Shown in pieces: positions 33,858 through 49,198 of a DNA stretch of 64,000 nucleotides (the first letter of the stretch is position 1; the number at the start of each line of letters is the position of its first letter). A program made the translations under genes and the position numbers. The notes beneath the pieces were generated by a model, which was given only the letters and a program-made list of their open reading frames with translations, searched no databases and was not told where the DNA came from. The DNA comes from Candidatus Omnitrophota bacterium (GTDB taxonomy: Bacteria; Hinthialibacterota; Hinthialibacteria; Hinthialibacterales; Hinthialibacteraceae): positions 23,861 through 87,860 of the forward strand of contig QZKN01000097.1 in the NCBI GenBank assembly GCA_003598175.1. Reading direction: 5' to 3'.

Positions 33858-35237
33858 TCATTCCGGATCGATTTCGTAGCCTTGTTTCGCATAGTGTTGC
33901 AGCTTGTAGGTCAGCGCGCGGCGGCTGATGCCGAGAGAGCGGGCGGTTTCCGTGCGATTATACCGATTTTCTCGCAACGCATGCAAAATAGCTTCGCGCT
34001 CGATGTCTTCCATGCGCCTGGCCGGCGAGGATTCCACCGATTCGTTTTCAAGCGCGGTGAACGATTTTAGTATGCGGCGGGGGAGGTGTTCGGGGATGAT
34101 CAATTCACCGCGCGCCATCAGGGTCGCCCGTTCCATCGCGTTGCGAAGTTCGCGGACGTTGCCGGGCCAGTGATATTCTTCAAAGCAGTGCGTCACCGCC
34201 GCGGACAGGCGGGGGCTGCCTTGTTTGAACGTTTGCGCGAAATGAATGGCCAAGGGAATAATATCGGCTTTTCTGTCTCGCAAAGGCGGGATGTAGATTT
34301 CCATCACGTTCAACCGAAAAAACAAATCCTCGCGAAAATTCCCCTTTTCCACTTCCTGTTCCAGATTGCGGTTCGTCGAGGCCAGAATGCGGGTGTTGGT
34401 TTTATATTCCTGGTTGGAGCCAACGCGTTGATAGGTTCCTTCCTGCGTAATGCGCAGCAGTTTCGCCTGCAGGGCGGGAGACATTTCGACGATTTCATCG
34501 AGCAGAATCGTTCCCCCGTTCGCTTCCTCGAACCGGCCGATGCGTTGATGCGTCGCGCCCGTGAAGGAGCCTTTTTCATGGCCGAACAATTCGCTCTCCA
34601 GCAGATTTTCCGGGATGGCGGCGCAATTCACTTTGATCAAGGGTTTGGAAGCGCGAGGGCTCCAGGCGTGAATCACATCCGCCACCACTTCCTTGCCGAC
34701 GCCGCTTTCGCCGGTAATGAGAATACGGCTGTCGGAGGAGGCCACCAACGCCGCTTCCCGAAAAACCTCGATCATGAGCGGGCTGTGAACGACGACGGTG
34801 TCCGGCAATTGCAATCCGTCGGGAATCTGCAATCGGGATCGTTCCCGGATGCCGGCCGCTTTTTGCACGGAGGAGAGGAGTTCATCCAGATCGATGGGTT
34901 TTTCCAGATAATTCACGGCGCCGTCGCGCATGGCGTTCACCGCGTCGCGAATATCGGCGTAAGCCGTAACCAGCAGCACCGGCAAGGTGGGATATTTTTC
35001 TCTCGTTTTCCGCAGCGTTTCCAAACCCGAAATGCCCGGCATCCGAACGTCGGAAATCATGATATTGATTTCTTTCGTATCAAGCAAAGCCAGGGCCTGC
35101 TCGCCGGAGGTTGCCGTGAGGATCTGGAATCCCTGGCCGGACAGAAAGGATTGCAGAAGGCTTCGCTGGCTGGGATCGTCATCGACGATCAAAACGCGGA
35201 TGTGGGAGACCGCTTCTTTCGTATTGGAAACAGCCAT
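33858..35237 (-). CDS. Sigma-54-dependent response regulator (NtrC family)
   Basis: REC domain (VLIVDDD), AAA+ motifs GESGVGKE and GAFTGA-like, and a C-terminal Fis-type HTH. Confidence 0.85.
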   Translation of the reverse strand: MAVSNTKEAVSHIRVLIVDDDPSQRSLLQSFLSGQGFQILTATSGEQALALLDTKEINIMISDVRMPGISGLETLRKTREKYPTLPVLLVTAYADIRDAVNAMRDGAVNYLEKPIDLDELLSSVQKAAGIRERSRLQIPDGLQLPDTVVVHSPLMIEVFREAALVASSDSRILITGESGVGKEVVADVIHAWSPRASKPLIKVNCAAIPENLLESELFGHEKGSFTGATHQRIGRFEEANGGTILLDEIVEMSPALQAKLLRITQEGTYQRVGSNQEYKTNTRILASTNRNLEQEVEKGNFREDLFFRLNVMEIYIPPLRDRKADIIPLAIHFAQTFKQGSPRLSAAVTHCFEEYHWPGNVRELRNAMERATLMARGELIIPEHLPRRILKSFTALENESVESSPARRMEDIEREAILHALRENRYNRTETARSLGISRRALTYKLQHYAKQGYEIDPE

Positions 35238-35238
35238 C

Positions 35239-36852
35239 TTAGAGTTCTTTCGACGCGAGTCTCAATCCGCGAATGCGAAAGCGAGCGCCTTGATTCTCGC
35301 CGGGAACATACGCGATTTCCCAACCATGCGCGAGCACGATTTGATGAACGACGGCAAGCCCCAATCCCGTGCCTTTCTCCCGCGTGGTAAAATACGGACG
35401 AAAAATCTTGTCCTGATTTTCCGGCGCAATCCCCGGCCCGTCGTCGCGAATTTCGAACGTGACTTCATTGGATTTATTTTTGTCCAGGATAATCTCGATG
35501 CACCCCTTTTCCTCCACGGATTGGATGGCGTTGAGAAATAGATTGAAAATCACCTGCCGAAATAATAACTCATCCGCTTCGACGGTCAATTCGGGTCCCT
35601 GCAATTGGAAATAAATCATTTTGTCTTCGATATCGCTCTTCAATGCGCGATGAACATCGTTGATCAAGGAATTGAGGAGCACCGCCGACGGTTTCAATTC
35701 ACGCGGTTTCGAATATTCGATAAATTCGTTTAGCTGGACGGTTATGCGATCCACTTCATCTGTGATTTTCAGCGAGCGATTGCGGATTTCCTCGGACGTA
35801 TCGGCTTGTTTGGCGATGATTTGCGCCAGTCCGCGGACAATATTCAGCGGATTTCTCGTTTCATGCGCCAGACCGGCGGCGGCGATATTCATTTCGCGCA
35901 AATGCGTATTCATTTCACTGGCGCGGATCAAACGGAGCTGTAAGGAGGACGATTGAACCAGGTTGCGCCATGCAAATCCCAAGCCGATAATGGCCGCAAA
36001 GGCAAATCCGCAAATCGTAATCCGCAGCCATTGATCCCGTTGGCAATCCTGGAGAAATTGTTGTGTGGAGAGTTCAATCACAAATCCGTGCAGTCCCTGC
36101 TTTTGAATCAAAGCCTGATACCGTTCTTCGGATATCCAGGGCGGCCGTCCAAATCCGAATCCGGGACGTCCCCCTCGCTGCCGGAATCGCTCCATGCGGC
36201 TGATGAATTCCGAGGCCATACGCGTGACATCCGGTATCATCGCCGTCGCCGAGGGAATCTCGTTCGCTCCCCATTCCGGCGGTCCGTTGCGATGATTGTT
36301 CCGGCGGTCCTCTTGAAATTCCCCCGGCGGTCCTTCCGGCGGCTCTTCCGGTGAACCCTCGGGAGAGGGAAACCGGGGCCGCCCCCGTCTTGAATCCGGT
36401 CGGAAACGATTGTCGTCAATGATGATCGTCGGCGATTCTTCCTGATTCTCATCCAGTACATTCGCGCCGAAATCCACGAGGTTCATGTAGGCGACTGATT
36501 TTTTCCCCCATTGTTCCACTTGTTGCGGAAGATTGTTGATATCGATTTCGGTATCGCCGGCGGAGGCGGAAAGAACGACTTCTCCGGCGGAATTCAGGAG
36601 GGTAATGGAGTGCAATTCCTCCGATTCCGCTAATTTTTGTAGCGCCGTTTCCAGCCGGCTTTGACTGATGAAACCATCCGGACGGCGCTGGGATTGGAGA
36701 ACGATCGCCACCGTGTCCGAGATATCCACCGCGCGATTTAGCAATCCCTTGCGGGCGGATTCCTTGAAACGGTTATGTTCGACAACCTGCCAAAGGATAA
36801 TCACGATCCCGACGAGTACGAAAACGATGAAAATGGTTTTGGATCGATTCAT
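35239..36852 (-). CDS. Sensor histidine kinase, partner of the NtrC-like regulator
   Basis: N-terminal TM, periplasmic region, HisKA (LAHETRNPL) and HATPase (GTGLGLAVV). Its stop abuts the regulator start. Confidence 0.8.
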   Translation of the reverse strand: MNRSKTIFIVFVLVGIVIILWQVVEHNRFKESARKGLLNRAVDISDTVAIVLQSQRRPDGFISQSRLETALQKLAESEELHSITLLNSAGEVVLSASAGDTEIDINNLPQQVEQWGKKSVAYMNLVDFGANVLDENQEESPTIIIDDNRFRPDSRRGRPRFPSPEGSPEEPPEGPPGEFQEDRRNNHRNGPPEWGANEIPSATAMIPDVTRMASEFISRMERFRQRGGRPGFGFGRPPWISEERYQALIQKQGLHGFVIELSTQQFLQDCQRDQWLRITICGFAFAAIIGLGFAWRNLVQSSSLQLRLIRASEMNTHLREMNIAAAGLAHETRNPLNIVRGLAQIIAKQADTSEEIRNRSLKITDEVDRITVQLNEFIEYSKPRELKPSAVLLNSLINDVHRALKSDIEDKMIYFQLQGPELTVEADELLFRQVIFNLFLNAIQSVEEKGCIEIILDKNKSNEVTFEIRDDGPGIAPENQDKIFRPYFTTREKGTGLGLAVVHQIVLAHGWEIAYVPGENQGARFRIRGLRLASKEL

Positions 36853-36858
36853 GGTTTA

Positions 36859-38061
36859 TTATTGTATCCGTAAGGGTTTCCAGGATTTACTTTTTCGATT
36901 GACCGCCTTCGTTTCCGTGTCCGGAACCTGCTCTTGATTTAGCGGTTGAATCGCGTCCGGCGCACCGGTTTCCTTTTCAGGAACGTTGTCGAAAAACTTA
37001 TCCATCTGATCCTGAGTAAATGCCTTTGGCGCCAATTGGGTATGGCTTTTTTCCCGCGCGGCCAGATCCACGAGTTTGTCCGGATTCTCCACCACATAGG
37101 GCGTCAGAAAAATCAGCAATTCCGTCTTCGAGTTATTCTTTACTTTACGTTGAAATGCCAATCCCAGCAACGGGATATCCCCCAGAATCGGCACCTTTCG
37201 ATTGGTTTCGGTGCTATTGTCCTCCATCATGCCGCCGATGACGACCGTTTGCCCGTTCGGAGTATTGACCACGGTATCGGCGGAGCGAATAGCGAAAACC
37301 GGGGATTCAATCGTATCCGAAATAGGGACAGTTTCATCGGTGAGGGTCGAGATTTCGGGAGAAAGGATCATCTCTACCAATCCATCCTGCGTGATGAACG
37401 GCGTGACGCGCAGAATGATGCCGATGTCCTGATAGGTAACGGTATTGATCGTTTGCCCGTCCGAAGTGACGCGGCTGTCCGTGACGAACGGAAAACGTTG
37501 CCCCACCGTGATGACGGCTTCCTGATTGTTGCGGGTAAGAATCGAGGGGCGCGAGAGGACTTCGAGTTTTCCCACTTCGGACAATGCCCGTAACGTCAAC
37601 TGTACATCATTTTCAAGCAGCCGGTAAAAGCCGCCGCGCGATTCCGCCGCCAGCCCGAACATGGTTTCGAAGATGCTGCCGTTGGCGCCTCGTTTTTTCA
37701 CATCCAGGGTACCTTCCAGGCCGAAATCCAGATCATCGCGATAGGTCACTTCGAGAAAGACCACCTTGATCAAAACCTGCTGAACCGGACGGTCCAGATT
37801 TTCAACGATCTGCTTGATGTGCTCATTGGTTTCCTCGTCGGTGATGACGATGATGGAGCGGCTGTCGTAATCCACCTGGATCATTGCTTCACCGATCATG
37901 CCCTTGGTCAGATATTCTCTCATGCCGGCGGCGCCGGAATAGGAAGAGCGACCGGTGGTGGTTCCGCCGAAGGTCCGCATTTGAGCGGACAGGTCGCTCG
38001 CAATGAGCAACAGAAACGAGCAGTTGAAAACGATGATTAATAAATTTCTACGAAAATTCAT
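36859..38061 (-). CDS. Secretin C-terminal half (GspD-like secretin domain) with its own signal peptide
   Basis: MNFRRNLLIIVFNCSFLLLIASDLSAQ is a signal peptide. The body has VPILGDIPLLGLAFQ...ELLIFLTPYV, the secretin signature. A GAGGT RBS lies 6 nt before the ATG. Confidence 0.75.
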   Translation of the reverse strand: MNFRRNLLIIVFNCSFLLLIASDLSAQMRTFGGTTTGRSSYSGAAGMREYLTKGMIGEAMIQVDYDSRSIIVITDEETNEHIKQIVENLDRPVQQVLIKVVFLEVTYRDDLDFGLEGTLDVKKRGANGSIFETMFGLAAESRGGFYRLLENDVQLTLRALSEVGKLEVLSRPSILTRNNQEAVITVGQRFPFVTDSRVTSDGQTINTVTYQDIGIILRVTPFITQDGLVEMILSPEISTLTDETVPISDTIESPVFAIRSADTVVNTPNGQTVVIGGMMEDNSTETNRKVPILGDIPLLGLAFQRKVKNNSKTELLIFLTPYVVENPDKLVDLAAREKSHTQLAPKAFTQDQMDKFFDNVPEKETGAPDAIQPLNQEQVPDTETKAVNRKSKSWKPLRIQ

Positions 38062-38082
38062 GGTTCGTTACCTCGAATTGGA

Positions 38083-39540
38083 TTATTGGCCTGGCCGGAA
38101 AGATTGCGTCTGCGTTGACGTGTTCGTCATGGTGCGATTCCCAAGGGTGGAGGTATTTTGATTGGTGGTGGTTCTTGCCGTGCTTGCGGATGTTTGATTT
38201 TCGAAAATGCCGCGCAGAATCTGTTCTACATTTTGCACGTCGGCGTATTCCAGCTTATAGACATACACTTTTTGCTTTTTTGCCGGATTGGCGTCGAGCA
38301 TTTGAATCATAGCTGCGATCTGCGACATGGTCTCGCTGGCGGCGAAGACGACGAGTGAATCGGTTCTCGGATCGGCGATGGCGCGAACGGTGGTTTGTTG
38401 CAATTTCCAATCGCTGGTTTGTTGTTGGGTGTTGGCGCGAGTCGTTCCACCCATTCCTCCCGGTCCTCCCATAAATCCACCTCTGCCTCCGAATTGGGGA
38501 GCGAACTGGTTGCTTGTTGCCGTGGATTGGTCGGGAAACAATTCGGTGATCAATTCCGCCATTTCCGTGGCGTCGGCATATTGCAGATGGAAAACGCGGA
38601 TTTCGGTGACGTCTTCCACGCTGATATCCACTTCCTTCACCAGTATTTCTATGGTTGGCATCAATTCTTCGGACGCGGTGACGATGAGAGAATTGGTTTG
38701 TTCGTCGGCGACGGCGACTACGCGCGAGGCGGCTTTCAGCGCGTCGCTTTCCTCTTCCTGGTTACCGCCGGGACGTTGTTGTCCCCCTCTGTCGCCGAAT
38801 CCCGGAAAACGACCGGCAAATCCGCCGCGTTGATTTCTGGCATTGCTGTTACTGTCGGTTTGAAACAATTGGGTGATCACTTGCGCCAATTCGCTCGCAT
38901 CGGAGTATTGCAACCGAAACACGCGGATGGAGGCGATGCTGGAAATGGAGGTGTCCAGCGCGCGAATGATTTCGGTCATGCGGCGGATATTTTTTTGTGT
39001 GTCCACGAGCACGATGGCGTTGCTGCTTTCATTGGCGGACATGGTCGCGTATGTCGGAAGCAACGGCTGCAGATTGTTGATCAGTTGCACCGCGTTCGTA
39101 TAGCGGACGGGAATGATCTGCGTAACCATTTCATCCGTTTTGGGAATCCTATTCGGATCGTTGCCCGTTTTCACGGGGAGATCCCGCAGGCGGGCGTCGT
39201 CCCGCCGCACGATGGTCAACGTGCGCTCATTGCGAATGGCGGCATAGCCTTTTTCATGCAGGATGGTGTTGAGTAGATTGACCGCCTCTTCCTTGCTCAA
39301 CGGTTGATGGCTCCATACATCCACGCGGCCATCCACGTTGGTATCCATCACAATGATGAATCCCGCCGCTTCACTTAAATAATCGAGAACGGTTTGCAGC
39401 GGCACGCCGCGAAAATTCAACCGAATCGTTTGCCCATTGTCGTTCCCTGGATTTTGCGCATGCAATGCCGGAGAAGAGAAGCAGCACAACGCCGCGATTA
39501 CGATACAGCCTACTGATTTGAGAAACATTTGGATTTTCAT
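38083..39540 (-). CDS. Secretin N-terminal half (N0 plus three secretin_N domains) with a signal peptide
   Basis: Signal peptide. N0 is NFRGVPLQTVLDYLSEAAGFIIVMD. Three secretin_N repeats (IRVFRLQYSDASELAQVITQLF and similar). It ends in a Thr/Asn-rich tail. It is in the same frame as 36859..38061 but separated from it by two TAA stops. Confidence 0.75.
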   Translation of the reverse strand: MKIQMFLKSVGCIVIAALCCFSSPALHAQNPGNDNGQTIRLNFRGVPLQTVLDYLSEAAGFIIVMDTNVDGRVDVWSHQPLSKEEAVNLLNTILHEKGYAAIRNERTLTIVRRDDARLRDLPVKTGNDPNRIPKTDEMVTQIIPVRYTNAVQLINNLQPLLPTYATMSANESSNAIVLVDTQKNIRRMTEIIRALDTSISSIASIRVFRLQYSDASELAQVITQLFQTDSNSNARNQRGGFAGRFPGFGDRGGQQRPGGNQEEESDALKAASRVVAVADEQTNSLIVTASEELMPTIEILVKEVDISVEDVTEIRVFHLQYADATEMAELITELFPDQSTATSNQFAPQFGGRGGFMGGPGGMGGTTRANTQQQTSDWKLQQTTVRAIADPRTDSLVVFAASETMSQIAAMIQMLDANPAKKQKVYVYKLEYADVQNVEQILRGIFENQTSASTARTTTNQNTSTLGNRTMTNTSTQTQSFRPGQ

Positions 39541-40142
39541 TTTTGCATCTCCTGTCTGCGTCTTTCCATCATCTTTTTGAGAAGATCACTGCTCGATTCG
39601 CCGGGCGCATCGGTTTTTTCCGTTTCGGTGGTCGAAACGGGACTCAATCGATCACCGCCGGACGTTCGACGTTCCCGTGTTTCTCTTCTCGAAGCGCCCG
39701 ATGCGGACGCGAGTTGCCATTCTCCCTGATCCTGCCGGCGCAATGCCATCCCCACCGATAGCGTCAACGGTTGCCCGTTCACCTGCAACTTGATATTGCT
39801 CGTACCGATTTCGACGATCTCGTGATCGGCGATGGTTTCGCCCAATTTGCAAACGGCGTCATATCCGGAATGAGTGCCTTCGAAAAAGGCATAAACCGTC
39901 GCATCCGCAATCATCGTTCCGATTAAACTGAATTCCTCGATAACCGGCGTTGGTTCGACGCGGGGTTGGACGGTTATTTTTTTTCGCCGGTCGGGATTGA
40001 AAATATTGCGTTCGACAAGAATCCGGAATTGCTCGTAACTCCATTTGCCGCTGGAATCCTGATTCTCCGCGGCCACATAAGCAGGCTGGAGGAGGCAAAT
40101 AAGTACGGCCGCGATAAAAGCATTGTATACGTTCGTGTTCAT
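39537..40142 (-). CDS. Putative T2SS GspC/PilP-like periplasmic protein
   Basis: Signal/TM segment, and position between the secretin and the GspM/L genes. Weak sequence evidence. Confidence 0.35.
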   Translation of the reverse strand: MNTNVYNAFIAAVLICLLQPAYVAAENQDSSGKWSYEQFRILVERNIFNPDRRKKITVQPRVEPTPVIEEFSLIGTMIADATVYAFFEGTHSGYDAVCKLGETIADHEIVEIGTSNIKLQVNGQPLTLSVGMALRRQDQGEWQLASASGASRRETRERRTSGGDRLSPVSTTETEKTDAPGESSSDLLKKMMERRRQEMQK

Positions 40143-40170
40143 GATGCAATCTTCACTTTGCTATGGTTTC

Positions 40171-40701
40171 CTAGTTCGTGTCCGCCAGGATGAGTCCGCT
40201 GAAGCGGACGCCAAGCGACAAGCTCTCCCCTTTATCATCGCGCGCTGAGATTTCGATGTTTTCCACTTTCAGCGCCAACGAATCCCGTTCGATTTCATAG
40301 AGAAAACGGGAAAGAGCGGAGATGTCGCCTTGAGCGATAACCTGGCATTCCAACGTTGAATAATTCGGATCGTTTTGTTTCCAATCCGGTTTGAATGAAC
40401 TTCGTTGAATACGGCTTTCCTGAACCCAACGCTCCACCGCCGTCAGGATTTGATTTTCCGCGACGGGCCGATCGGCCGGCAATGCCTCTGCTTTCATTTG
40501 TTGCCAGCGCTGCCGCAAATTCGCCTCCCGTTCGAGAAGCAATTCGCCTTTGTTGACATTATTTTCCAATTCCTCGATTTTTTGCGCCCGCTCCCGCCAC
40601 AGATTCGTGAGAGGAGTCAAAACCAGTTTGTCTCCGGCAAGAGCACAAATACAAATGATGGCGGCAAGAGTTAAATATCGTTCACGATGTTTCTTATCCA
40701 T
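40171..40701 (-). CDS. Putative GspM/PilO-like bitopic membrane protein
   Basis: N-terminal TM then a coiled-coil region. Context supports the call. Confidence 0.4.
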   Translation of the reverse strand: MDKKHRERYLTLAAIICICALAGDKLVLTPLTNLWRERAQKIEELENNVNKGELLLEREANLRQRWQQMKAEALPADRPVAENQILTAVERWVQESRIQRSSFKPDWKQNDPNYSTLECQVIAQGDISALSRFLYEIERDSLALKVENIEISARDDKGESLSLGVRFSGLILADTN

Positions 40702-41233
40702 TTTCGTCTTCCTTCACCTCCGAATTGACGGACGCGAACTGTGAAGTATTCATGTCTCGCAACAGGTGAACCACCAATTTCTCTTTTATTTTTGATAATT
40801 TCACGATTTTCAATAACGGCAGCCATTCCTGAAAACCATTCATGGATTTGACCGGCTCCTGAAATTCCGTCGGCGCGTTCCAGGCAAACGGTTCATGCGA
40901 ACACGATTCGGAGCCGATATGCGTAATGATGACTTTCCGCAGGGGATCGTCATGCCAGATATTCATTCGTCGAATGTTGATTCGCAGGAATTCCAATTCG
41001 TTTACTTTCGGTTCCATATGATCCCAGTGGGACTGAAGAATCGACAATTGTCGGGATTGATACAGGAACATGCCTCCGCCGATCAGAATGAGCAAGCTGA
41101 TGAGGCCGAAAACCATCGCCGTTCCTTGCTCCGTCAACCGGTCGATCCATTTCTCCACTCTCTCCTCAATCAAAATCGAGAGGCAGAAAAGAGAGACCAA
41201 CATCATAAAACAATCATCCTGCCTGACTTTCAT
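40694..41233 (-). CDS. Membrane protein of the T2SS cluster (GspN/PilN-like?)
   Basis: Two hydrophobic helices. Context only. Confidence 0.3.
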   Translation of the reverse strand: MKVRQDDCFMMLVSLFCLSILIEERVEKWIDRLTEQGTAMVFGLISLLILIGGGMFLYQSRQLSILQSHWDHMEPKVNELEFLRINIRRMNIWHDDPLRKVIITHIGSESCSHEPFAWNAPTEFQEPVKSMNGFQEWLPLLKIVKLSKIKEKLVVHLLRDMNTSQFASVNSEVKEDENG

Positions 41234-42716
41234 CGAACGCTCCCTCTTTCCACATGAAATTCAAGGAAAACTGCATCGGCGTTTCTCCCTGCGTTTGCTG
41301 CACCCGCAAATCGAATACCTGCGGATCTTCCTGCAGCAAATTGAACATGGTCAGCCAATCCCGATTGTTGCGCGCAAAGCCGGAGCAGGAAACTCGAGAC
41401 AAATCTCGAATTTCCACCATTTTCACCCAAACCGTTCCTTCTTCCGGAAACGTCTGCGTCAGAGTACGTAAAATGGACAAACCGGGAACGGATTCGTCAA
41501 ACCAGGGACGAAAATTTTTGACTTTTTGCTGAATCGTTTCAATTTCCGCAACTTTTATTTCCATCTGACTCCAACGCGTTTCGAGTCGAGTGAGTTTGAC
41601 ATGCTGATAGATGAACATGGCGATGATGAAGCACGCAGCCAAAACGGCCGACGCGCCGATCCACAGGTTGCCGCGAGAAGACATTCGCATAACCAGCTGC
41701 TTCAACGGATTGACCTGGGGCGGGAGAAATTCCAAAACAGAGGCATTGTCCGTCAGAAATCGTGCCAGAGCCGCTTGAAACGGCAGGGATTCATCTTGAA
41801 TTCCGTTCCAGGAAATGGACGGGATTCTCAACGTATCGCTTCCGGCAGAGAGAGACAATCCCATCCGTTCGATGGCCGGACGCAATCCATCGCAGATCTC
41901 CCGTTTCCAATCATTCGGCGCCAAAACATGTAAGTCGTGAATGGTATTCCGAAGATCGCTATTCAGTTGGCCCAGCGTGATTCTCACTTCGCGAATAACC
42001 GAGTCCACGTCGAAGTTGTTTTCGTATAACTCGCCGCGGATCCCGCTTTGCAATCGCCTTATTGCAACGATGCCTCCTCCGGCCATGACACAAAGGTCGG
42101 TTCCGCTTTCGCACACCTGCAGCACGACTTTTCCGTCGGATCGCCCGTCCTGCAAAGCGGTAATCCCGACGGTTATGCTGATCGGACGAAGTTTCGCCGC
42201 TTTCAACGCATTGGTAAGATGCCGCAATTGATGCGTGGGAATTGCGGCCAGCGTGGCGTTCTGCCTTCCATTCGGAATTTGAAAACATGACATCGACAGA
42301 GAAAGATCGTCGGGGGAAAAGGGAAAGCCGCGTTCCGCTTGTAGTTGAATATAATTTTTCCGATCTTCATCGGAAAGTTGCGGCAACTCGATTTGTTGCG
42401 TCAAAACCCATTTCAACGGAACACAAACAACGCAGCGGTTTTCTCGAATGCCGGCTTCCTCCAACAGATTTAGGATTTCCCGCCCCACCAATTCGGATTC
42501 GTGAGTCAATGGATCGAGCGCCAGTTTCTTCCGGATCGATTTCTCGACGCGCGCACCGCTGTCGTTCCGGCGCATGAGAATGGCGTAGATTAACCCGTCG
42601 TCCAAACCGATTCCCAGAATGGACTTGTATTTTTTTTTCTTTGTCGGACTCACTTTCCTTGCTCCCTTACTAACGCCAATTGGTTGCGTATCTCTCTTCC
42701 AAGCGCCCATCCCCAT
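41214..42716 (-). CDS. GspL/PilM-like actin-fold assembly protein (cytoplasmic domain, TM, periplasmic domain)
   Basis: ILGIGLDDGLIYAIL looks like a PilM/GspL N-terminus. One TM lies about residue 330. The start is probably downstream of 42716 because it overlaps gspK. Confidence 0.5.
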   Translation of the reverse strand: MGMGAWKRDTQPIGVSKGARKVSPTKKKKYKSILGIGLDDGLIYAILMRRNDSGARVEKSIRKKLALDPLTHESELVGREILNLLEEAGIRENRCVVCVPLKWVLTQQIELPQLSDEDRKNYIQLQAERGFPFSPDDLSLSMSCFQIPNGRQNATLAAIPTHQLRHLTNALKAAKLRPISITVGITALQDGRSDGKVVLQVCESGTDLCVMAGGGIVAIRRLQSGIRGELYENNFDVDSVIREVRITLGQLNSDLRNTIHDLHVLAPNDWKREICDGLRPAIERMGLSLSAGSDTLRIPSISWNGIQDESLPFQAALARFLTDNASVLEFLPPQVNPLKQLVMRMSSRGNLWIGASAVLAACFIIAMFIYQHVKLTRLETRWSQMEIKVAEIETIQQKVKNFRPWFDESVPGLSILRTLTQTFPEEGTVWVKMVEIRDLSRVSCSGFARNNRDWLTMFNLLQEDPQVFDLRVQQTQGETPMQFSLNFMWKEGAFDESQAG

Positions 42717-43981
42717 CCACTCAAATCCCTGCGATAGCGTATTTCCGGCGACTCGCCGCTCACGTCAATCAGAAATTGAGTGCGGCGGTATCCTTTATCG
42801 TTCCGTCCGACGGCAATAATGTCGGCGGTGAGTCGGTAGGTGTTCGCGGTAATGTAGGGTCCGGCTTCGATCGCGCCGTCTTCATCCAATACTTCGGACA
42901 ACCATGCCACGCTGTCCAGGTCATCAGAATGCGATTGGCGATAGGAAACCACCTGCGAAGCCTTATTGCTTCCGATTCCCGGCAGACAGGCAAGAACCTC
43001 TACGCCGGCGGTATTGATATTAACCAAACCTTCGATGGAACTCTCTTCCGAAACCGTGAGCTGGTCATCGATTTGAGCAAATTCCTCAAGGGTCATCCCG
43101 CTGCGAATGAAATATTCCAAAAGGCTGCCGTACTCGCTGGTTCCGGAGGTGTTTTGTTCGATCTGACTTGCCCGATCCTCTTCGAACGTATCCTGCAACA
43201 GCTGCGTCAATTCCTCGCTGTCCTCGCTGTTGATATTGATTTTGTCCGCGGTGGATTCCCGACTGTAAACCGTTACGTATTCGAGAATTCCCGGCTCCAA
43301 TCGCCCGTTTTGATTGTCCGCCGGAGGAGAAACGTTACCATCGTTTTCATTCGGATCTAAAACACCGTTGAGATTGGCGTCTTCGCCATACAGGACATCC
43401 CAGTCCGCGCCGAAAAGCAAATGCAGTTCGGCGATGGATTCAAACGGGGCGTTTTTGCATTCGTAGCCGGGATTGCGCGCCATATAGGCTTGCGATTCGG
43501 CGCCGTTCGATGAGACCTCGTCATCTTCATCCCGCCAATCGATGATGGCCGCGGCCAATTCGGAAGTCATTCCCGGCGCCATTTCCAGCATTTCGAGAGT
43601 GGCTGTGTTCAAATTCAATTTCGACGCTTCATCGATCAGGCCGAACACCGGCCGCTCGTCGGCAACATCCAAATCCCCACGGCCGATCAGCCAGAAGAGC
43701 GCATCGCCGACGATCACGGCTTCGGATTCGTAGGAATCACTGGCGGGCATGACTCCCGGCTCTTCCGCATTGGCGAGAATATACATGACATAGCGGACAG
43801 CCCCCTCCATCGCCTGTTCCGCCTGTGTTTGCGCGACCATATTCTCGGCGGCGCGATACTCAAGCATCATGGATCGACCAAATAATAATGCCACACTCAC
43901 CAATCCCGCCGAAATCCATAACACGATGATCAGGATGGATCCACGCAACGAATCGCATAGAGAAATGTGCTTTTTCATCAT
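42650..43981 (-). CDS. gspK: T2SS minor pseudopilin GspK
   Basis: ILIIVLWISAGLVSVALLFGRSMMLEYRAAEN is a typical GspK N-terminus. Confidence 0.7.
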   Translation of the reverse strand: MMKKHISLCDSLRGSILIIVLWISAGLVSVALLFGRSMMLEYRAAENMVAQTQAEQAMEGAVRYVMYILANAEEPGVMPASDSYESEAVIVGDALFWLIGRGDLDVADERPVFGLIDEASKLNLNTATLEMLEMAPGMTSELAAAIIDWRDEDDEVSSNGAESQAYMARNPGYECKNAPFESIAELHLLFGADWDVLYGEDANLNGVLDPNENDGNVSPPADNQNGRLEPGILEYVTVYSRESTADKININSEDSEELTQLLQDTFEEDRASQIEQNTSGTSEYGSLLEYFIRSGMTLEEFAQIDDQLTVSEESSIEGLVNINTAGVEVLACLPGIGSNKASQVVSYRQSHSDDLDSVAWLSEVLDEDGAIEAGPYITANTYRLTADIIAVGRNDKGYRRTQFLIDVSGESPEIRYRRDLSGWGWALGREIRNQLALVREQGK

Positions 43982-44826
43982 GGCGCTCTGCCTCCTCCGC
44001 CGGTATCGGTTCTCTGTTGATTCGATTGCGTTTGATTGCCTCCCGTTTGTGATTGATTTCCGCCCGGTTGTGATTCGTTTGATTCATCCGTTTCCGTGGT
44101 TTCTTCGGTTTCCGAATCCGCGGTTTCTTCCTCTTCCGCTGCCGCAACGGCGACAATCGGAGCCATCATCTCCATGGAAAAAATGTTCCCTTCGATTTCC
44201 CCGCCGGTTGTATTGTCCTGTGTATAGGGAAGGAAACGAATCAACGCATGAATCGCCAGCGGCATGGGTGGATCCTGGCTGGTGGAATCCCACGAATCCA
44301 ACCAGTTTTGGCCGTCGTAATACGTGAATTCCAGCGATTGCACATCATCCAGCAAGACTTGCTCTTCCTCCACCTCTTCCACGGTGGACAACAAATTACG
44401 GATGAGGCTTCGGATCAGGAAATAACCGCCGCGACGGTCCCGGGAATTGGATTCGTATAATGCATATTCCACCTTTTGAATATCGCCGAAGGGGGAATCC
44501 TCACGCAGAACGCCGGTCGAGGTGTACAATTCCAATCGATCCCGACGTTGATTGATTCCGCCTTCGTTTTCCCCGATCAGGGGACCGGCCAGAATCTCGC
44601 CCGTCGGAACGGCGTTGCGGAAATCCCGTTTCATGATCGACAGAGCATATAATTTCGGATTTCTCCGTTCGATATGACGTTCATTGTTTTCGCGGAGTCG
44701 CAGTGATCCATATAACACAGAGTTGATCGCCGCGAGGATCACGGAAAACATGGCGATGGATACCAATAATTCCAACAGTGTGAAAGCGCCGCGCCGTTCA
44801 TATGAATCATACCGACGAACGTTCAT
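43978..44826 (-). CDS. gspJ: T2SS minor pseudopilin GspJ-like
   Basis: Prepilin-type N-terminus GAFTLLELLVSIAMFSVILAAI. Confidence 0.6.
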   Translation of the reverse strand: MNVRRYDSYERRGAFTLLELLVSIAMFSVILAAINSVLYGSLRLRENNERHIERRNPKLYALSIMKRDFRNAVPTGEILAGPLIGENEGGINQRRDRLELYTSTGVLREDSPFGDIQKVEYALYESNSRDRRGGYFLIRSLIRNLLSTVEEVEEEQVLLDDVQSLEFTYYDGQNWLDSWDSTSQDPPMPLAIHALIRFLPYTQDNTTGGEIEGNIFSMEMMAPIVAVAAAEEEETADSETEETTETDESNESQPGGNQSQTGGNQTQSNQQRTDTGGGGRAP

Positions 44827-45254
44827 GAGGTTTCAGACTCCTCGACCAGCGTACTCAAGAGGACATGATACTCATGCTCTTGCACCTTGAACCAAACCAC
44901 GACGGTCAACATCTGCATATCGTCGTAGGGCCAGGTTTCCTCGATAAATTCCCAGCGATATTCCGGCCATTCCTCGCCGAAATCTCCACGGGTACTGCAC
45001 GAACTCCAACTCTCGTTGAGAATCATTTCGTCGAGAAAGCGTTCCGCCAACTGCACCGCCACGATTTTACGGTCGGCAATGACGCCCGCGCGATTCGCGA
45101 TGGCGATGCCGTGCAAGGCGACCGGTATCACGAGCGCCACAAACAACATGGCCGCCAGCGTTTCCGCGAACGTGAAGCCGCTTTCCCGATTCGGCTTACC
45201 GCCCGGAGAGACGCCGATTGCGTAAAAATGAGGAATTGATTTCTCGCTGCTCAT
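44823..45254 (-). CDS. gspI: T2SS minor pseudopilin GspI-like
   Basis: GFTFAETLAAMLFVALVIPV prepilin N-terminus. Confidence 0.6.
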   Translation of the reverse strand: MSSEKSIPHFYAIGVSPGGKPNRESGFTFAETLAAMLFVALVIPVALHGIAIANRAGVIADRKIVAVQLAERFLDEMILNESWSSCSTRGDFGEEWPEYRWEFIEETWPYDDMQMLTVVVWFKVQEHEYHVLLSTLVEESETS

Positions 45255-45804
45255 ATTCCTTTTCCGTCAGAATTTCATAACCGACGAGGAATTCTTTCTG
45301 CGTTACGAAGAGAGAATCCTCCTCATCGTCCTCTTTGTTTCTTCCCATGCGCACAGTGATCAGGCTGGTTTCGTCCTGTGAACCATCCGGCCAATAGCGA
45401 ATATAACCAATACCGTTTTTAAACAGAGAGGATTCCTGTTGAAGCATTTCGATTTTCAAATCCTCATCGATTTCAAACACGAGAATCGGTTCACTTTCGA
45501 TTTCGTAACCGGTCATCGGCCCAAGTTCGTAGAATGTATTCTTGAAGTCGATCCGTAATTCCATCGGAACCGCCAACGAAACCGCCTGGCTTTGCGTATA
45601 GCGAATGCTGTTCAGCATTCTACGCGCTTCTTCCTGCAACGAACGCCCATGAATGAATCGGGATAATGACGGAGCGGTAATCGCGAGAACGGCGGACAGC
45701 AGGGCCATGACCACGATCAGCTCGATCAGCGTGAATCCGCGACTCGAGAACGTCCCTTTTCCATTATTTCCTGCTTCTATCCGTACTCCAATTGGTAATA
45801 TCAT
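45196..45804 (-). CDS. gspH: T2SS minor pseudopilin GspH-like
   Basis: GFTLIELIVVMALLSAVLAI prepilin N-terminus. The real start is probably internal to the listed ORF. Confidence 0.6.
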   Translation of the reverse strand: MILPIGVRIEAGNNGKGTFSSRGFTLIELIVVMALLSAVLAITAPSLSRFIHGRSLQEEARRMLNSIRYTQSQAVSLAVPMELRIDFKNTFYELGPMTGYEIESEPILVFEIDEDLKIEMLQQESSLFKNGIGYIRYWPDGSQDETSLITVRMGRNKEDDEEDSLFVTQKEFLVGYEILTEKEYEQREINSSFLRNRRLSGR

Positions 45805-46240
45805 CGTCGCCGCCTACTCGGCCGTCCGGCCCCATCGACATCAGGTCGTACCCTTTTTGATTGTGTTTGCCGGGATACTCATAAATGTACTCGTTGCCCC
45901 ACGGATCGAGCGGAATATCCTGCTTCAAATAGGGGCCGCGCCAATCCTTGGCGTAGCTGGGCTCCTGCACCAAATCCTCCAGACCGTTGCTGCCTTTGGG
46001 ATAAAAGCCGTTATCCACTTCGAACGCGTCCAGCACAATCTCGAAATTGGCGATTTGCGCCTGGGCGGCGGTGACTCTCGCCTGTTCCGAGCGCCCTGCG
46101 AATTTCGGGACGACAATGGCCGCCAGAGTAGCCAGAATAACGAGCACCAGCAGCATTTCGACCAACGTGAATCCGCTTTGGTTGGCGGAGCGAGATATCG
46201 TTGTTTCCGATCGTTTTAATGGCATGATTCGACCTCCCAT
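45764..46240 (-). CDS. gspG: T2SS major pseudopilin GspG
   Basis: GFTLVEMLLVLVILATLAAIVVP...GPDGRVGGDDDITNW is canonical GspG. Confidence 0.85.
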   Translation of the reverse strand: MGGRIMPLKRSETTISRSANQSGFTLVEMLLVLVILATLAAIVVPKFAGRSEQARVTAAQAQIANFEIVLDAFEVDNGFYPKGSNGLEDLVQEPSYAKDWRGPYLKQDIPLDPWGNEYIYEYPGKHNQKGYDLMSMGPDGRVGGDDDITNWSTDRSRK

Positions 46241-46243
46241 TTT

Positions 46244-47470
46244 TTATTTGATGTAATCCTGTATCGTGAAAATCGGAATTACCATTCCTATGAAAATTGT
46301 ACCAATGAGTCCGGCGATGAGAAACAGCATCAACGGTTCGGCCAAAGCCACCGCGGTTTTCAGTTGCCGATCCAGATCCTCTTCCGTCACGTTCGCAATG
46401 CGCACCAATTCCTGATCCAGCCGTCCGGTCTCCTCCGCCACGGAAATCATTTCCAGCACCGAACTCGCAAACAGTTGCCGGCAATCGGACAGACTGCTTC
46501 CCAATTGATCGCCTTTTTTGACTCGTTCGATCGATTCCGAGACGGCGTCGACCAGAATCTGGTTGTTGATCGATCGACGGGCAACGTTCAATCCTTGGAT
46601 CAAGGGAACGCCCGCGCCGAGCAGCGTCCCCAACATGCGGCAAAAACGCGCCATGGCAAAGCGAGCGGTGAGAGGACCGATAACCGGCACTTGTAACATG
46701 GCGTTCTCCCATTTTCGTTTGCCCTGCTCGGTTTTCAACCAATTCTGCGCCATATAACCGATCACCGCGAATCCGATTGCCGCGAACACGCCGTAATCCC
46801 GAACGATTTCGCTGGCGCCGACGATCAATCGCGTGATCAACGGAAGCGCCGCGCCGAATCCCGCAAAGATAAGTTGGAAGCGCGGAATGAAAAAAACCAG
46901 CAAAAAAATGAGAACGGAAATGGCCAGTACCAACAAGACGGTCGGATAAATCAGAGCCGCGAAAACTTTCGAGCGCAAATCCTTTTCACGTACCTGGAAA
47001 TCGGCGATTTGTCCGAGCACCAAATCCAAAAAACCGCCGGTTTCTCCCGCCTGCACCATCGCCACATAGACGCGCGGAAACGTTTCCGGAAACTGCGCCA
47101 TGGCGTCGGCCAATGGCATCCCGTCGATGACCAAATCATGGACTTCCTTCCATTTTTCGGCAGACGTCGGATTGGACGCCTCGCGATGGAGAATGACTAA
47201 CGCGCGGCTAAGAGGGACTCCCGCGGCCAGAAGATTTGCCAACAGGCGGGTGAAGTTTTCAAGATCGCGAAACGAAACCTTTTTGGATTTCCACCGGAAA
47301 TCAAATCCGCTCTTGGTCTCACTTTTTTCGTTACTCTGCTCCGCAATGTTGACCGGCGTCCATCCGCGAGCCTGCAGCCGGCTGTAGGCGTCCTGGCGGC
47401 CTTGCGCTTCGATGCTGCCTTCGGCCGTCGAGCCGTCGGCTTGAATTACGCGATATCGATACAGGGACAT
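46244..47470 (-). CDS. gspF: T2SS inner-membrane platform protein GspF
   Basis: 408 aa with two repeats of the GspF domain and three TM helices. Confidence 0.85.
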   Translation of the reverse strand: MSLYRYRVIQADGSTAEGSIEAQGRQDAYSRLQARGWTPVNIAEQSNEKSETKSGFDFRWKSKKVSFRDLENFTRLLANLLAAGVPLSRALVILHREASNPTSAEKWKEVHDLVIDGMPLADAMAQFPETFPRVYVAMVQAGETGGFLDLVLGQIADFQVREKDLRSKVFAALIYPTVLLVLAISVLIFLLVFFIPRFQLIFAGFGAALPLITRLIVGASEIVRDYGVFAAIGFAVIGYMAQNWLKTEQGKRKWENAMLQVPVIGPLTARFAMARFCRMLGTLLGAGVPLIQGLNVARRSINNQILVDAVSESIERVKKGDQLGSSLSDCRQLFASSVLEMISVAEETGRLDQELVRIANVTEEDLDRQLKTAVALAEPLMLFLIAGLIGTIFIGMVIPIFTIQDYIK

Positions 47471-47485
47471 TATTCATTCTCGTCT

Positions 47486-49198
47486 TTACTTGGCTGTTTC
47501 GCCGTTGAACACATCGACAGAGCCTGTTTTTGTTACCCGCATCACCTCATCCGGCGTTGTGATGCCTTCACTGACCAGACGCCATCCGTCTTCATTCAAC
47601 GAGCGCATCCCGTTGCGAAAAGCGGCTTCGCGAATTTGGCCGGACGAACAATCCTTTAAAATCATTTCGCGAATCTCGTGATTCATGGCCATCATTTCGA
47701 ACACGGCCCGGCGGCCATGAAAACCGGTGTGACGGCATTCGCGGCAGCCGACCGCGCGGTATATGGGTTGATCGGGAGACAAGCCGATCTTTTCGATCAA
47801 GGTTTGTGTCTGCGGCGAATCGTCGATCCGTTTGCATACGGGACAAAGCACACGAACCAATCGTTGCGCGAGAACCGATTCGAGAGAAGACGCAACCAAA
47901 TACGGCTCCACCCCCATATCGATCAAACGGGTCAACGCGCCCGGCGCATCGTTGGTGTGCAAAGTGGAAAAGACCAAATGGCCGGTCAACGACGCCTGAA
48001 CGGCAATTTGGGCGGTTTCTGCATCCCGGATTTCTCCGATCAGAATCACGTCCGGGTCGTGGCGAAGAATGGAGCGCAATCCGCGGGCAAAGGTCAGGCC
48101 GGATTTTTCCGAAACCTGAATTTGGTTGACTCCTTTTAATTGGTATTCGATCGGGTCTTCAATCGTGATGATTTTTCGCACGGAATCGTTGATTTCACTT
48201 AATGCGGTATAAAGAGTGGTTGTTTTTCCGCTGCCGGTCGGACCGGTGACCAATACGATTCCGTGAGGCATATCCAACACATTGCGGAACAGATGCAATT
48301 CCCGCTCGCTCATGCGCAGTTCCGTCAGACTTACTAACGTCGAATCCTGCCGTAGAAGCCTCATGACGACAGCTTCGCCGTGCAGCATGGGAATGACGGA
48401 GACGCGCACGTCCACCTCGCCGTTGCCCACGCGGAGTTTAATCCGTCCGTCTTGCGGCAGGCGTTTTTCCGCGATGTTGAGATGGCTGAGGATTTTGACG
48501 CGGGAAACGATAGCCGGTTGAAATTTCTTGATCTGCGAAGGAACCGGCACATCCTGCAAGACGCCGTCGATGCGATAACGGATCCGCAATTCATCTTCAA
48601 ACGGTTCCAAATGAATATCCGTCGCCCGCAATTCGATGGCGTCGCTCAACACTTGATTCACGAAGCGGATGATCGAGGCGTCTTCCGCCGCATGATCCAA
48701 ATCGGTATCTTCTTCCGCGTTTTCGTCCACCACTTGAAACGACGAATCCTCATCGAGGGAATTGATCGTATCCGCCCCGACGCCCAACCGCTTTTTCAAT
48801 TCGCGCAGGATGGCTTCCCGCGGCGCCAGAACCGGATTGATTTTCAACCCGGTCAGGATTTGCAGGGTATCCATTCCATGCGTTGCGAACAGGCGGCTGG
48901 TTGCGACTTCGATCGATCCGTTCACACGTTGAAGCGGTAGAATTTCCTCTTTCAACAGAATGCGCGCGGGAAATTGAGAAAGAAGCTGGCGATCGAGTTC
49001 GATTTCATCTAAATTCGAAATGGGGAGGGAGTATTCGACCGCCAGCCATTGCAAAACCTCTTCTTCGGTTTGAATATGTAACGTTTCATCATGGGCGAGT
49101 TGCCGTTGTAACGCTTCCGCATCCATGAGCGATAATTGCTTCGCTTCGATCATTTTTGTGAGTAACTCGTTCATGAGATCTACTCCCGTTTCATCCAT
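47486..49198 (-). CDS. gspE: T2SS ATPase GspE
   Basis: Walker A GPTGSGKTTT, a tetracysteine motif, and N1/N2 domains. Confidence 0.9.
   Translation of the reverse strand: MDETGVDLMNELLTKMIEAKQLSLMDAEALQRQLAHDETLHIQTEEEVLQWLAVEYSLPISNLDEIELDRQLLSQFPARILLKEEILPLQRVNGSIEVATSRLFATHGMDTLQILTGLKINPVLAPREAILRELKKRLGVGADTINSLDEDSSFQVVDENAEEDTDLDHAAEDASIIRFVNQVLSDAIELRATDIHLEPFEDELRIRYRIDGVLQDVPVPSQIKKFQPAIVSRVKILSHLNIAEKRLPQDGRIKLRVGNGEVDVRVSVIPMLHGEAVVMRLLRQDSTLVSLTELRMSERELHLFRNVLDMPHGIVLVTGPTGSGKTTTLYTALSEINDSVRKIITIEDPIEYQLKGVNQIQVSEKSGLTFARGLRSILRHDPDVILIGEIRDAETAQIAVQASLTGHLVFSTLHTNDAPGALTRLIDMGVEPYLVASSLESVLAQRLVRVLCPVCKRIDDSPQTQTLIEKIGLSPDQPIYRAVGCRECRHTGFHGRRAVFEMMAMNHEIREMILKDCSSGQIREAAFRNGMRSLNEDGWRLVSEGITTPDEVMRVTKTGSVDVFNGETAK

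Follow-up and report, generated by a model that had tools for sequence, protein, structure and literature searches.

The stretch of DNA analysed here (hereafter the window; 64,000 nucleotides (nt) of contig QZKN01000097.1, assigned to Candidatus Omnitrophota bacterium) encodes GspD, the secretin of a type II secretion system (T2SS), in two consecutive genes. Secretins are textbook single-chain, homo-multimeric outer-membrane channels, and GspD assembles into a gated, roughly 15-fold multimeric channel through which folded proteins are secreted; to our knowledge, every characterised T2SS secretin carries all of its domains on one polypeptide. In the window, the upstream open reading frame (ORF), denoted ORF A (gspD-N; positions 38083-39540, minus strand; 485 amino acids (aa)), encompasses a signal peptide, the domains N0, N1, N2 and N3, strand 1 and helix 1 of one further, last N domain, and a low-complexity tail. 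The downstream gene, ORF B (gspD-C; 36859-38061, minus strand; 400 aa), encodes a second signal peptide, which is followed by a linker, the remaining half of the last N domain and, finally, the pore domain. A Pfam scan of ORF A detected N0 (PF21305; 48.3 bits) and Secretin_N (PF03958; 143.8 bits in three stretches), and that of ORF B detected the complete pore-forming Secretin domain (PF00263; aa 159-325, 37087-37587, minus strand; 166.5 bits, profile positions 1-169 of 169) along with a sub-threshold Secretin_N match at aa 41-95. No other secretin-like ORF was found within the 64-kb window.

The two ORFs lie in the same frame and are separated by a spacer of 21 nt (38062-38082, minus strand), which reads, 5' to 3' on the minus strand, TCC AAT TCG AGG TAA CGA ACC. 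ORF A terminates with a TAA codon (38085-38083) and the spacer includes a second in-frame TAA (38070-38068) as well as a Shine-Dalgarno-like GAGGT (38074-38070), with the ATG of ORF B (38061-38059) located 8 nt downstream of this motif. The same in-frame spacing of 21 nt is found in five Hinthialibacter-like relatives (L004/L005, L007, L009, L010 and L012) and in three loci from Verrucomicrobiota (L029, L071 and L078). A first-pass annotation of this DNA, made from the sequence, had already described a secretin in two genes, and the two same-frame ORFs, with N0 and Secretin_N in one and Secretin in the other, agree with that description, as do the GAGGT ribosome-binding site and the new ATG that follows it. 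Several details required correction: both in-frame TAA codons are present, the first at 38083-38085, but the second is shifted by two bases from the previously assigned positions 38066-38068; the N-terminal half contains not only N0 and three Secretin_N domains but also the beginning of a fourth N domain (aa 423-448); and the signal peptide of the C-terminal half is not fused directly to the secretin domain, a linker and half of an N domain (aa 59-92) being inserted between the two.

ORF A starts with a signal-peptide-like segment (aa 1-28; MKIQMFLKSVGCIVIAALCCFSSPALHA; 39457-39540, minus strand), with Q as the next residue and with a putative cleavage site placed from the sequence. ORF B opens with MNFRRNLLIIVFNCSFLLLIASDLSAQ, in which two Arg residues precede a 16-residue hydrophobic core, and its signal peptide comprises aa 1-26 (37984-38061, minus strand); both ORFs open with the same succession of basic residues, a hydrophobic stretch and A-Q. 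A hydrophobic core preceded by Lys/Arg is present at the N-terminus of 106 of 120 ORF A homologues, and a start of the same signal-peptide-like kind was identified in 112 of the 118 ORF B homologues with a complete N-terminus. Among 50 ORF B homologues, Q27 is invariant and A26 is conserved in at least 90%. Residues 1-26 are the only segment of ORF B that has no counterpart in unsplit secretins, the alignment with the unsplit relative P0256 (see below) beginning at Q27. Together with the 112 homologues, this corroborates the earlier claim that the C-terminal half of the secretin possesses a signal peptide of its own.

To locate the cut relative to the domain structure of secretins, we compared both ORFs with unsplit relatives retrieved by a search of 1.84 billion cluster representatives. 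These unsplit secretins are 666-1181 aa long, are 41-49% identical to ORF B and rank just under the short family to which ORF B belongs. One of them, P0256 (846 aa), is colinear with the two window proteins: ORF A aa 9-485 align with its residues 23-503 (38% identity, E 8e-98), and ORF B aa 27-360 with its residues 484-805 (47% identity, E 4e-93), such that ORF A and mature ORF B tile P0256 and meet within a segment of low complexity; the unsplit relatives that are colinear in this way are 46-49% identical to ORF B. When the split proteins were aligned with 53 unsplit relatives, the columns of the junction corresponded to a long, Gly/Ser/Thr-rich loop of the last N domain, which joins its helix 1 to strand 2. 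The cut, accordingly, sits within one Secretin_N domain and not between domains. The first half of the split domain, consisting of strand 1 and helix 1 (ORF A aa 423-448, KQKVYVYKLEYADVQNVEQILRGIFE; 38197-38274, minus strand), aligns with the same elements of the last N domain in the 53 relatives and is followed by the tail of ORF A (aa 449-485; 38086-38196, minus strand), a low-complexity segment rich in Thr, Asn, Ser and Gln that represents the upstream remnant of the loop. The second half, with strands 2 and 3 and helix 2 (ORF B aa 59-92, AMIQVDYDSRSIIVITDEETNEHIKQIVENLDRP; 37786-37887, minus strand), matches the second half of the XcpQ N3 domain in the alignment, and the Gly/Ser/Thr linker between it and the signal peptide of ORF B is the other remnant of the loop. 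In the last N domain of the unsplit relatives, the Gly/Ser loop often reaches at least 100 residues and forms an unusually long disordered insertion at the place of the fission. The extra middle N domain (N3 in the window) is present in only about 38% of the unsplit relatives (P0253-P0384).

Neither half of the split domain passes the Pfam cut-off for Secretin_N (28.2 bits) when compared with the profile alone, the half from ORF A scoring 16.8 bits (profile positions 2-26) and that from ORF B scoring 22.4 bits (positions 8-69), whereas the two halves joined score 39.3 bits and cover positions 2-69 of 69. We further measured conservation as the mean frequency of the commonest residue in each segment among 120 homologues of each ORF. 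The two halves of the split domain show the same value, 0.71, which falls within the range for the corresponding halves of the intact N2 and N3 domains (0.66-0.79; for the strand 1-helix 1 half of N2 and N3 specifically, 0.66-0.68, compared with 0.71 in ORF A). Loops and tails are conserved at 0.35-0.40, including 0.35 for the tail of ORF A, and the last 60 residues of ORF B are poorly conserved (0.28). Both half-domains are retained in every homologous sequence inspected. Purifying selection thus acts equally on the orphan half-domains and on the halves of intact N domains.

Two short motifs flank the cut in the split family, namely, N-x-L-x-N-R in the tail of ORF A and R-x-Y-x3-G-M-x-G-E-A in ORF B (aa 48-59; 37885-37920), directly before strand 2. 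Inspection of the first 29 unsplit relatives revealed no clear equivalent of the former and, in place of the latter, L-x-G-Q-V. These motifs may be docking elements peculiar to the split form.

The division of the secretin into two proteins is not confined to the window. All 120 best homologues of ORF B are short proteins (334-481 aa) with the Secretin domain only, apart from four that also show a partial Secretin_N match, and all 120 best homologues of ORF A (443-601 aa) contain N0 and Secretin_N domains without the Secretin domain. A scan of one genome per GTDB species yielded at least 573 matching stretches, of which we studied the best 80 loci; 78 of these had usable upstream DNA. The 80 loci come from Hinthialibacter-like metagenome-assembled genomes (MAGs; frequently bearing the label Omnitrophota), from many Verrucomicrobiota orders, and from Sumerlaeota/BRC1 and Victivallales. 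In all 78 analysable loci, a gene of the A type, in an ORF of its own, is the immediate upstream neighbour of the B-type gene. The distance between the two genes varies from -4 to 335 nt, with a median of about 40 nt, and all three relative frames are represented (33, 21 and 24 loci, the excess of in-frame pairs being non-significant; binomial p = 0.09). The A genes end with any of the three stop codons (TAA in 37, TGA in 30 and TAG in 16 of 83 pairs, that is, the 78 loci together with L001-L005), and a Shine-Dalgarno-like motif precedes the start of the B gene in about half of the relatives. The same split is found on closed chromosomes (CP170459.1, OZ245740.1 and several other records with the OZ prefix). 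Hence the division into two genes, conserved across hundreds of species, is old and functional and does not represent a damaged gene. The proposal of the first-pass annotation that this is a functional gene fission and not a recent nonsense mutation withstood the comparison with related genomes that it had called for: the homologues of each half are half-proteins in 120 of 120 cases, and the split, found in 78 of 78 loci, is a property of the entire clade and not a peculiarity of this strain.

Three of the loci (L023, L029 and L054) come from lake MAGs titled 'Akkermansia muciniphila', titles that are perhaps mislabelled, and carry the split T2SS secretin. The secretin described for A. muciniphila, Amuc_1098, is an unsplit PilQ of 907 aa (PMC4960237); we considered this protein as a potential member of the split family and rejected it as unrelated. 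In two other loci, L018 (2208-3794) and L028 (1978-3820), the A-type gene is interrupted without a new signal peptide; these interruptions look like assembly errors or decay and not like further fissions, and L028 contains runs of N.

A genuine further fission was identified in 8 of the 80 species loci (L041, L045, L052, L067, L068, L073, L075 and L082), where the A-type gene is split again, in the loop of N2 that is equivalent to the place of the main cut, so that the secretin is encoded by three genes. The downstream piece produced by this second fission has a good ribosome-binding site and a signal peptide ending in A-Q of its own. L067 (2162-5134), with genes of 310, 255 and 392 aa, is a clean example. 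The upstream pieces of all eight loci end in Gly/Arg, mostly G-R-G-R, and those of L052, L067, L068, L075 and L082 share the loop motif R-E-F-F-x-R-M-R-G-G-G. N2 is intact in the window, and both states exist among close relatives. In a neighbour-joining tree of the B proteins (without support values), the three-gene loci fall into three separate groups, a hint that the three-gene state resulted from independent events.

The best structural matches are the T2SS secretins PulD, GspD and ExeD, and the best solved sequence relative of ORF B is XcpQ (5wln), also a T2SS secretin; because, in addition, the adjacent operon encodes GspE, GspF, GspG, GspJ and GspK, we assign the split protein to the T2SS class. 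In every respect tested, except for the single polypeptide, the secretin of the window is a T2SS GspD. The relatives of ORF B also include predicted giant proteins of about 1,650 to 5,530 aa with the secretin domain at the extreme C-terminus (P0321, P0327, P0331, P0334, P0341, P0349, P0353, P0363, P0367, P0372, P0374, P0376, P0381 and P0385-P0387), one example being P0331, with 5532 aa and 16 matched stretches. These giants could be proteins with very long repeat arrays or fusions created by gene calling.

The secretin genes are located at the end of a T2SS operon that is encoded entirely on the minus strand, with the upstream genes spanning 39537-49198. In the order of transcription, these are GspE (47486-49198), GspF (46244-47470), GspG (45764-46240), a minor pseudopilin with a weak match to GspH (45196-45804), GspJ (43978-44826), GspK (42650-43981), a PilM/GspL-like protein (41214-42716), an ORF of 179 aa (40694-41233), a GspM/PilO-like protein (40171-40701) and an ORF of 201 aa (39537-40142), 4 nt of which are shared with the start of ORF A; apart from the last-mentioned ORF and that of 179 aa, the assignments come from Pfam, the families matched in these genes including T2SSE, T2SSF, T2SSG, T2SSJ and T2SSK. 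The gene order is shared with L001 and L004. No type III secretion system (T3SS) components were found among the flanking ORFs scanned. On the other side, a histidine kinase gene (35239-36852, minus strand) begins 6 nt past the stop codon of ORF B and is adjacent to a gene for a sigma-54 response regulator (33858-35237, minus strand). Kinases follow the secretin genes elsewhere as well, a homologous one in L067 (5196-6860) and a hybrid one in L004 (7561-11460). The two-component system appears to be linked to the T2SS operon.

Compared with the canonical GspD proteins (PulD, XcpQ and EpsD; 6hcg, 5wln, 5wq7 and 5zdh), the split secretin shows the same order of N0, Secretin_N and Secretin domains and likewise belongs to an operon that encodes GspE, F, G, J and K. 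It differs in being encoded by two genes (three in some relatives), in the cut through the pore-proximal N domain, in the signal peptide of the downstream protein and in the presence of one N domain beyond the classical N0-N3 set. A C-terminal S-domain that binds a pilotin is a feature of the Klebsiella and Vibrio types only; neither an S-domain nor a pilotin was identified here, although a search for pilotins was not made. In the searchable literature, the coverage of which is incomplete, our searches for a T2SS secretin that is split, bipartite or encoded by two genes gave no result, so that a prior description is possible; the paper on the Hinthialibacter genome makes no mention of secretins or T2SS (PMC9324843).

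The first-pass annotation had considered a bipartite secretin mechanistically unusual, an opinion that has to be tempered, given that a two-gene precedent exists in the rhizobial Rhc-type T3SS, where RhcC1 (NolW) and RhcC2 constitute a split secretin (PMC3574062, PMC3459982), the only published one that we came across, although one that arose by a different route. As in the present case, a protein with the N-terminal domains is accompanied there by a separate protein with the Secretin domain. However, according to Abby and Rocha, RhcC2, which contains a BON domain, came from a Tad system and took the place of the C-terminal part that the secretin originally had (PMC3459982). In the rhizobial system, the two genes are separated by others and originate from a partial gene replacement in a T3SS, and no split domain shared by the two proteins has been reported, whereas here a T2SS secretin underwent fission within a domain; ORF B has no BON match in Pfam, and a single unsplit T2SS secretin is colinear with both ORF A and ORF B. 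Another parallel is TadB/TadC of the Tad and Epd pili, likewise an ancient, clade-wide fission into tandem genes in the type IV filament superfamily (PMC6668835), and the only gene fission that Denise et al. describe in this superfamily. The TadB/TadC pair differs from the split secretin in that it forms an inner-membrane platform, is divided between two repeated domains and needed no new signal peptide.

An engineered counterpart of ORF B also exists. PulD without N0-N2 is reported to assemble normally in vivo (PMC4604470), and the pore module can therefore be regarded as an autonomous assembly unit. The construct PulD(28-42/259-660), in which the pore module is accompanied by the adjacent N domain, assembles (PMC4604470), and ORF B is its natural counterpart, with the difference that the construct keeps a complete N3 and ORF B only half of the equivalent domain.

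Considering all these observations, we conclude that gspD underwent an ancient fission in a loop, long and disordered, that leads from helix 1 to strand 2 in its last, pore-proximal N domain. In the scheme that we propose, ORF A and ORF B would be co-transcribed, with ORF B translated from its own Shine-Dalgarno sequence, and both products would be exported across the inner membrane by their own Sec signal peptides, which would then be removed, in the case of ORF B probably near A26/Q27. ORF B is predicted to build the outer-membrane pore, and strand 1 and helix 1 at the C-terminal end of ORF A would dock on the strand 2-strand 3-helix 2 module of ORF B, rebuilding the N domain non-covalently in the periplasm, so that the protomer would be a two-chain unit. 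The N0-N3 domains of ORF A could then form the periplasmic vestibule that touches the inner-membrane platform. We consider this entire scheme, from ancient fission through separate export to reconstitution of the domain by two chains, to be probable. Several points weigh against it. We infer the binding of the two chains to each other and the complementation of the half-domains from indirect evidence; the sequence of the window comes from a MAG assembly; and the -3 residue of ORF B is Leu (L-S-A|Q), which is not ideal for signal peptidase I. In the AlphaFold2 (AF2) model of the joined mature chains, the five elements of the split domain have block means of the predicted local distance difference test (pLDDT) of 79-94, with the junction loop below 50, but this model, with its covalent connection and its multiple sequence alignment of unsplit relatives, indicates compatibility with the fold and not interaction. 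When the tail of ORF A was modelled with mature ORF B using alignment rows of the B family only, the tail, which had no alignment cover, reached pLDDT values of 45-64 and formed no strand 1.

The competing explanations that deny the existence of two proteins can be set aside almost completely. One holds that the true gene is a single gspD disrupted by a recent nonsense mutation or pseudogenization, or else by a sequencing or assembly error, as might be suspected for two ORFs of a MAG that share one frame with just 21 nt between them. The chance that this is the case is negligible: the two-gene layout recurs in 78 of 78 loci and on closed chromosomes, with three frames and three stop codons, the signal peptide of ORF B is conserved and lacks a counterpart in unsplit secretins, and the window itself contains two stop codons. 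Programmed readthrough or recoding of the stop codon would yield one polypeptide with the hydrophobic segment inside it, and the mild, non-significant excess of in-frame pairs (33 of 78; binomial p = 0.09) points in this direction. We give it hardly any credence either, considering that two consecutive in-frame TAA codons would have to be passed in the window, that 58% of the relatives are out of frame, with gaps that range from -4 nt up to 335 nt and with each of the three stop codons in use, and that a Shine-Dalgarno motif and an ATG precede a canonical signal peptide here, with a similar motif in about half of the relatives. Because of the conserved layout, the three frames and the three stop codons, assembly error, recent nonsense mutation and programmed readthrough are, in practical terms, excluded. 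An alternative that accepts the two proteins but not the processing of the second holds that the hydrophobic segment of ORF B tethers the pore subunit, either as a signal anchor that is not cleaved or as a lipoprotein signal. The suboptimal Leu at -3 and a Cys at residue 14, in the hydrophobic region, are compatible with this possibility, but there is no lipobox and the Cys is not conserved; a small-x-small pattern followed by Q is conserved where the hydrophobic region ends (78 of 118 homologues if the pattern is defined strictly), with Q27 invariant; and, by structural reasoning, the roughly 30 residues between the hydrophobic segment and the folded module are unlikely to span the periplasm with the pore domain placed in the outer membrane. 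Overall, a tether of this kind seems improbable.

The main rival to the proposed scheme accepts the fission but not the reconstitution of the shared domain: ORF B would be a self-sufficient short secretin and ORF A a separate adaptor or vestibule that meets the pore by ring stacking only or binds mainly to the inner-membrane platform, the half-domains being kept for other reasons. The normal assembly of PulD lacking N0-N2 (PMC4604470) fits this explanation, as does the existence of short secretins with few N domains, such as phage pIV (7ofh) and RcpA (8odn), which are among the structure matches of ORF B. Furthermore, RhcC1 has been proposed to be a linker to a foreign secretin (PMC3459982), and the first AF2 chimera left the tail of ORF A undocked. 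Against this stands the architecture of the domain itself, given that neither strand 1 with helix 1 nor strands 2-3 with helix 2 can by themselves produce a Secretin_N fold, although both fragments are as conserved as the halves of intact domains and are kept in all homologues examined. The same half-domain geometry, moreover, was produced at the independent fission of N2, and the two genes are always adjacent (78 loci). On balance, we regard the absence of reconstitution as unlikely, albeit a possibility to be taken seriously, and favor the rebuilding of the last N domain by the two chains.

An extension of the proposed scheme is that these bacteria form the pore-proximal ring domain in the periplasm through obligate complementation of split domains by two chains exported separately, or three in certain lineages, that this solution has arisen repeatedly, in equivalent loops of the N domains, and that the split is adaptive and not neutral, in that insertion of the outer-membrane pore would be uncoupled from attachment of the long periplasmic vestibule, permitting staged or regulated assembly of the secretion machine across the cell wall. 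We offer this only as speculation that is more likely to be wrong than right.

A large and environmentally widespread set of lineages, including Verrucomicrobiota, Hinthialibacterota-like bacteria, Sumerlaeota and Victivallales, encodes the secretin as two or three chains, cut through a folded domain. A practical consequence is that annotation tools that expect one gspD will call such systems incomplete, with the halves labelled "hypothetical" or "secretin N-terminal domain-containing protein", as seen in the names of homologues (some ORF A homologues are so named by NCBI). For the specialist, the split secretin is a moderately surprising natural experiment on secretin assembly. If the halves indeed reassemble, it would be a natural split-protein system at work in the periplasm and would bear on the role of the N3-type ring in the multimerisation and gating of secretins, on the order in which the pore and the vestibule are assembled, and on the sites at which secretins tolerate engineering.

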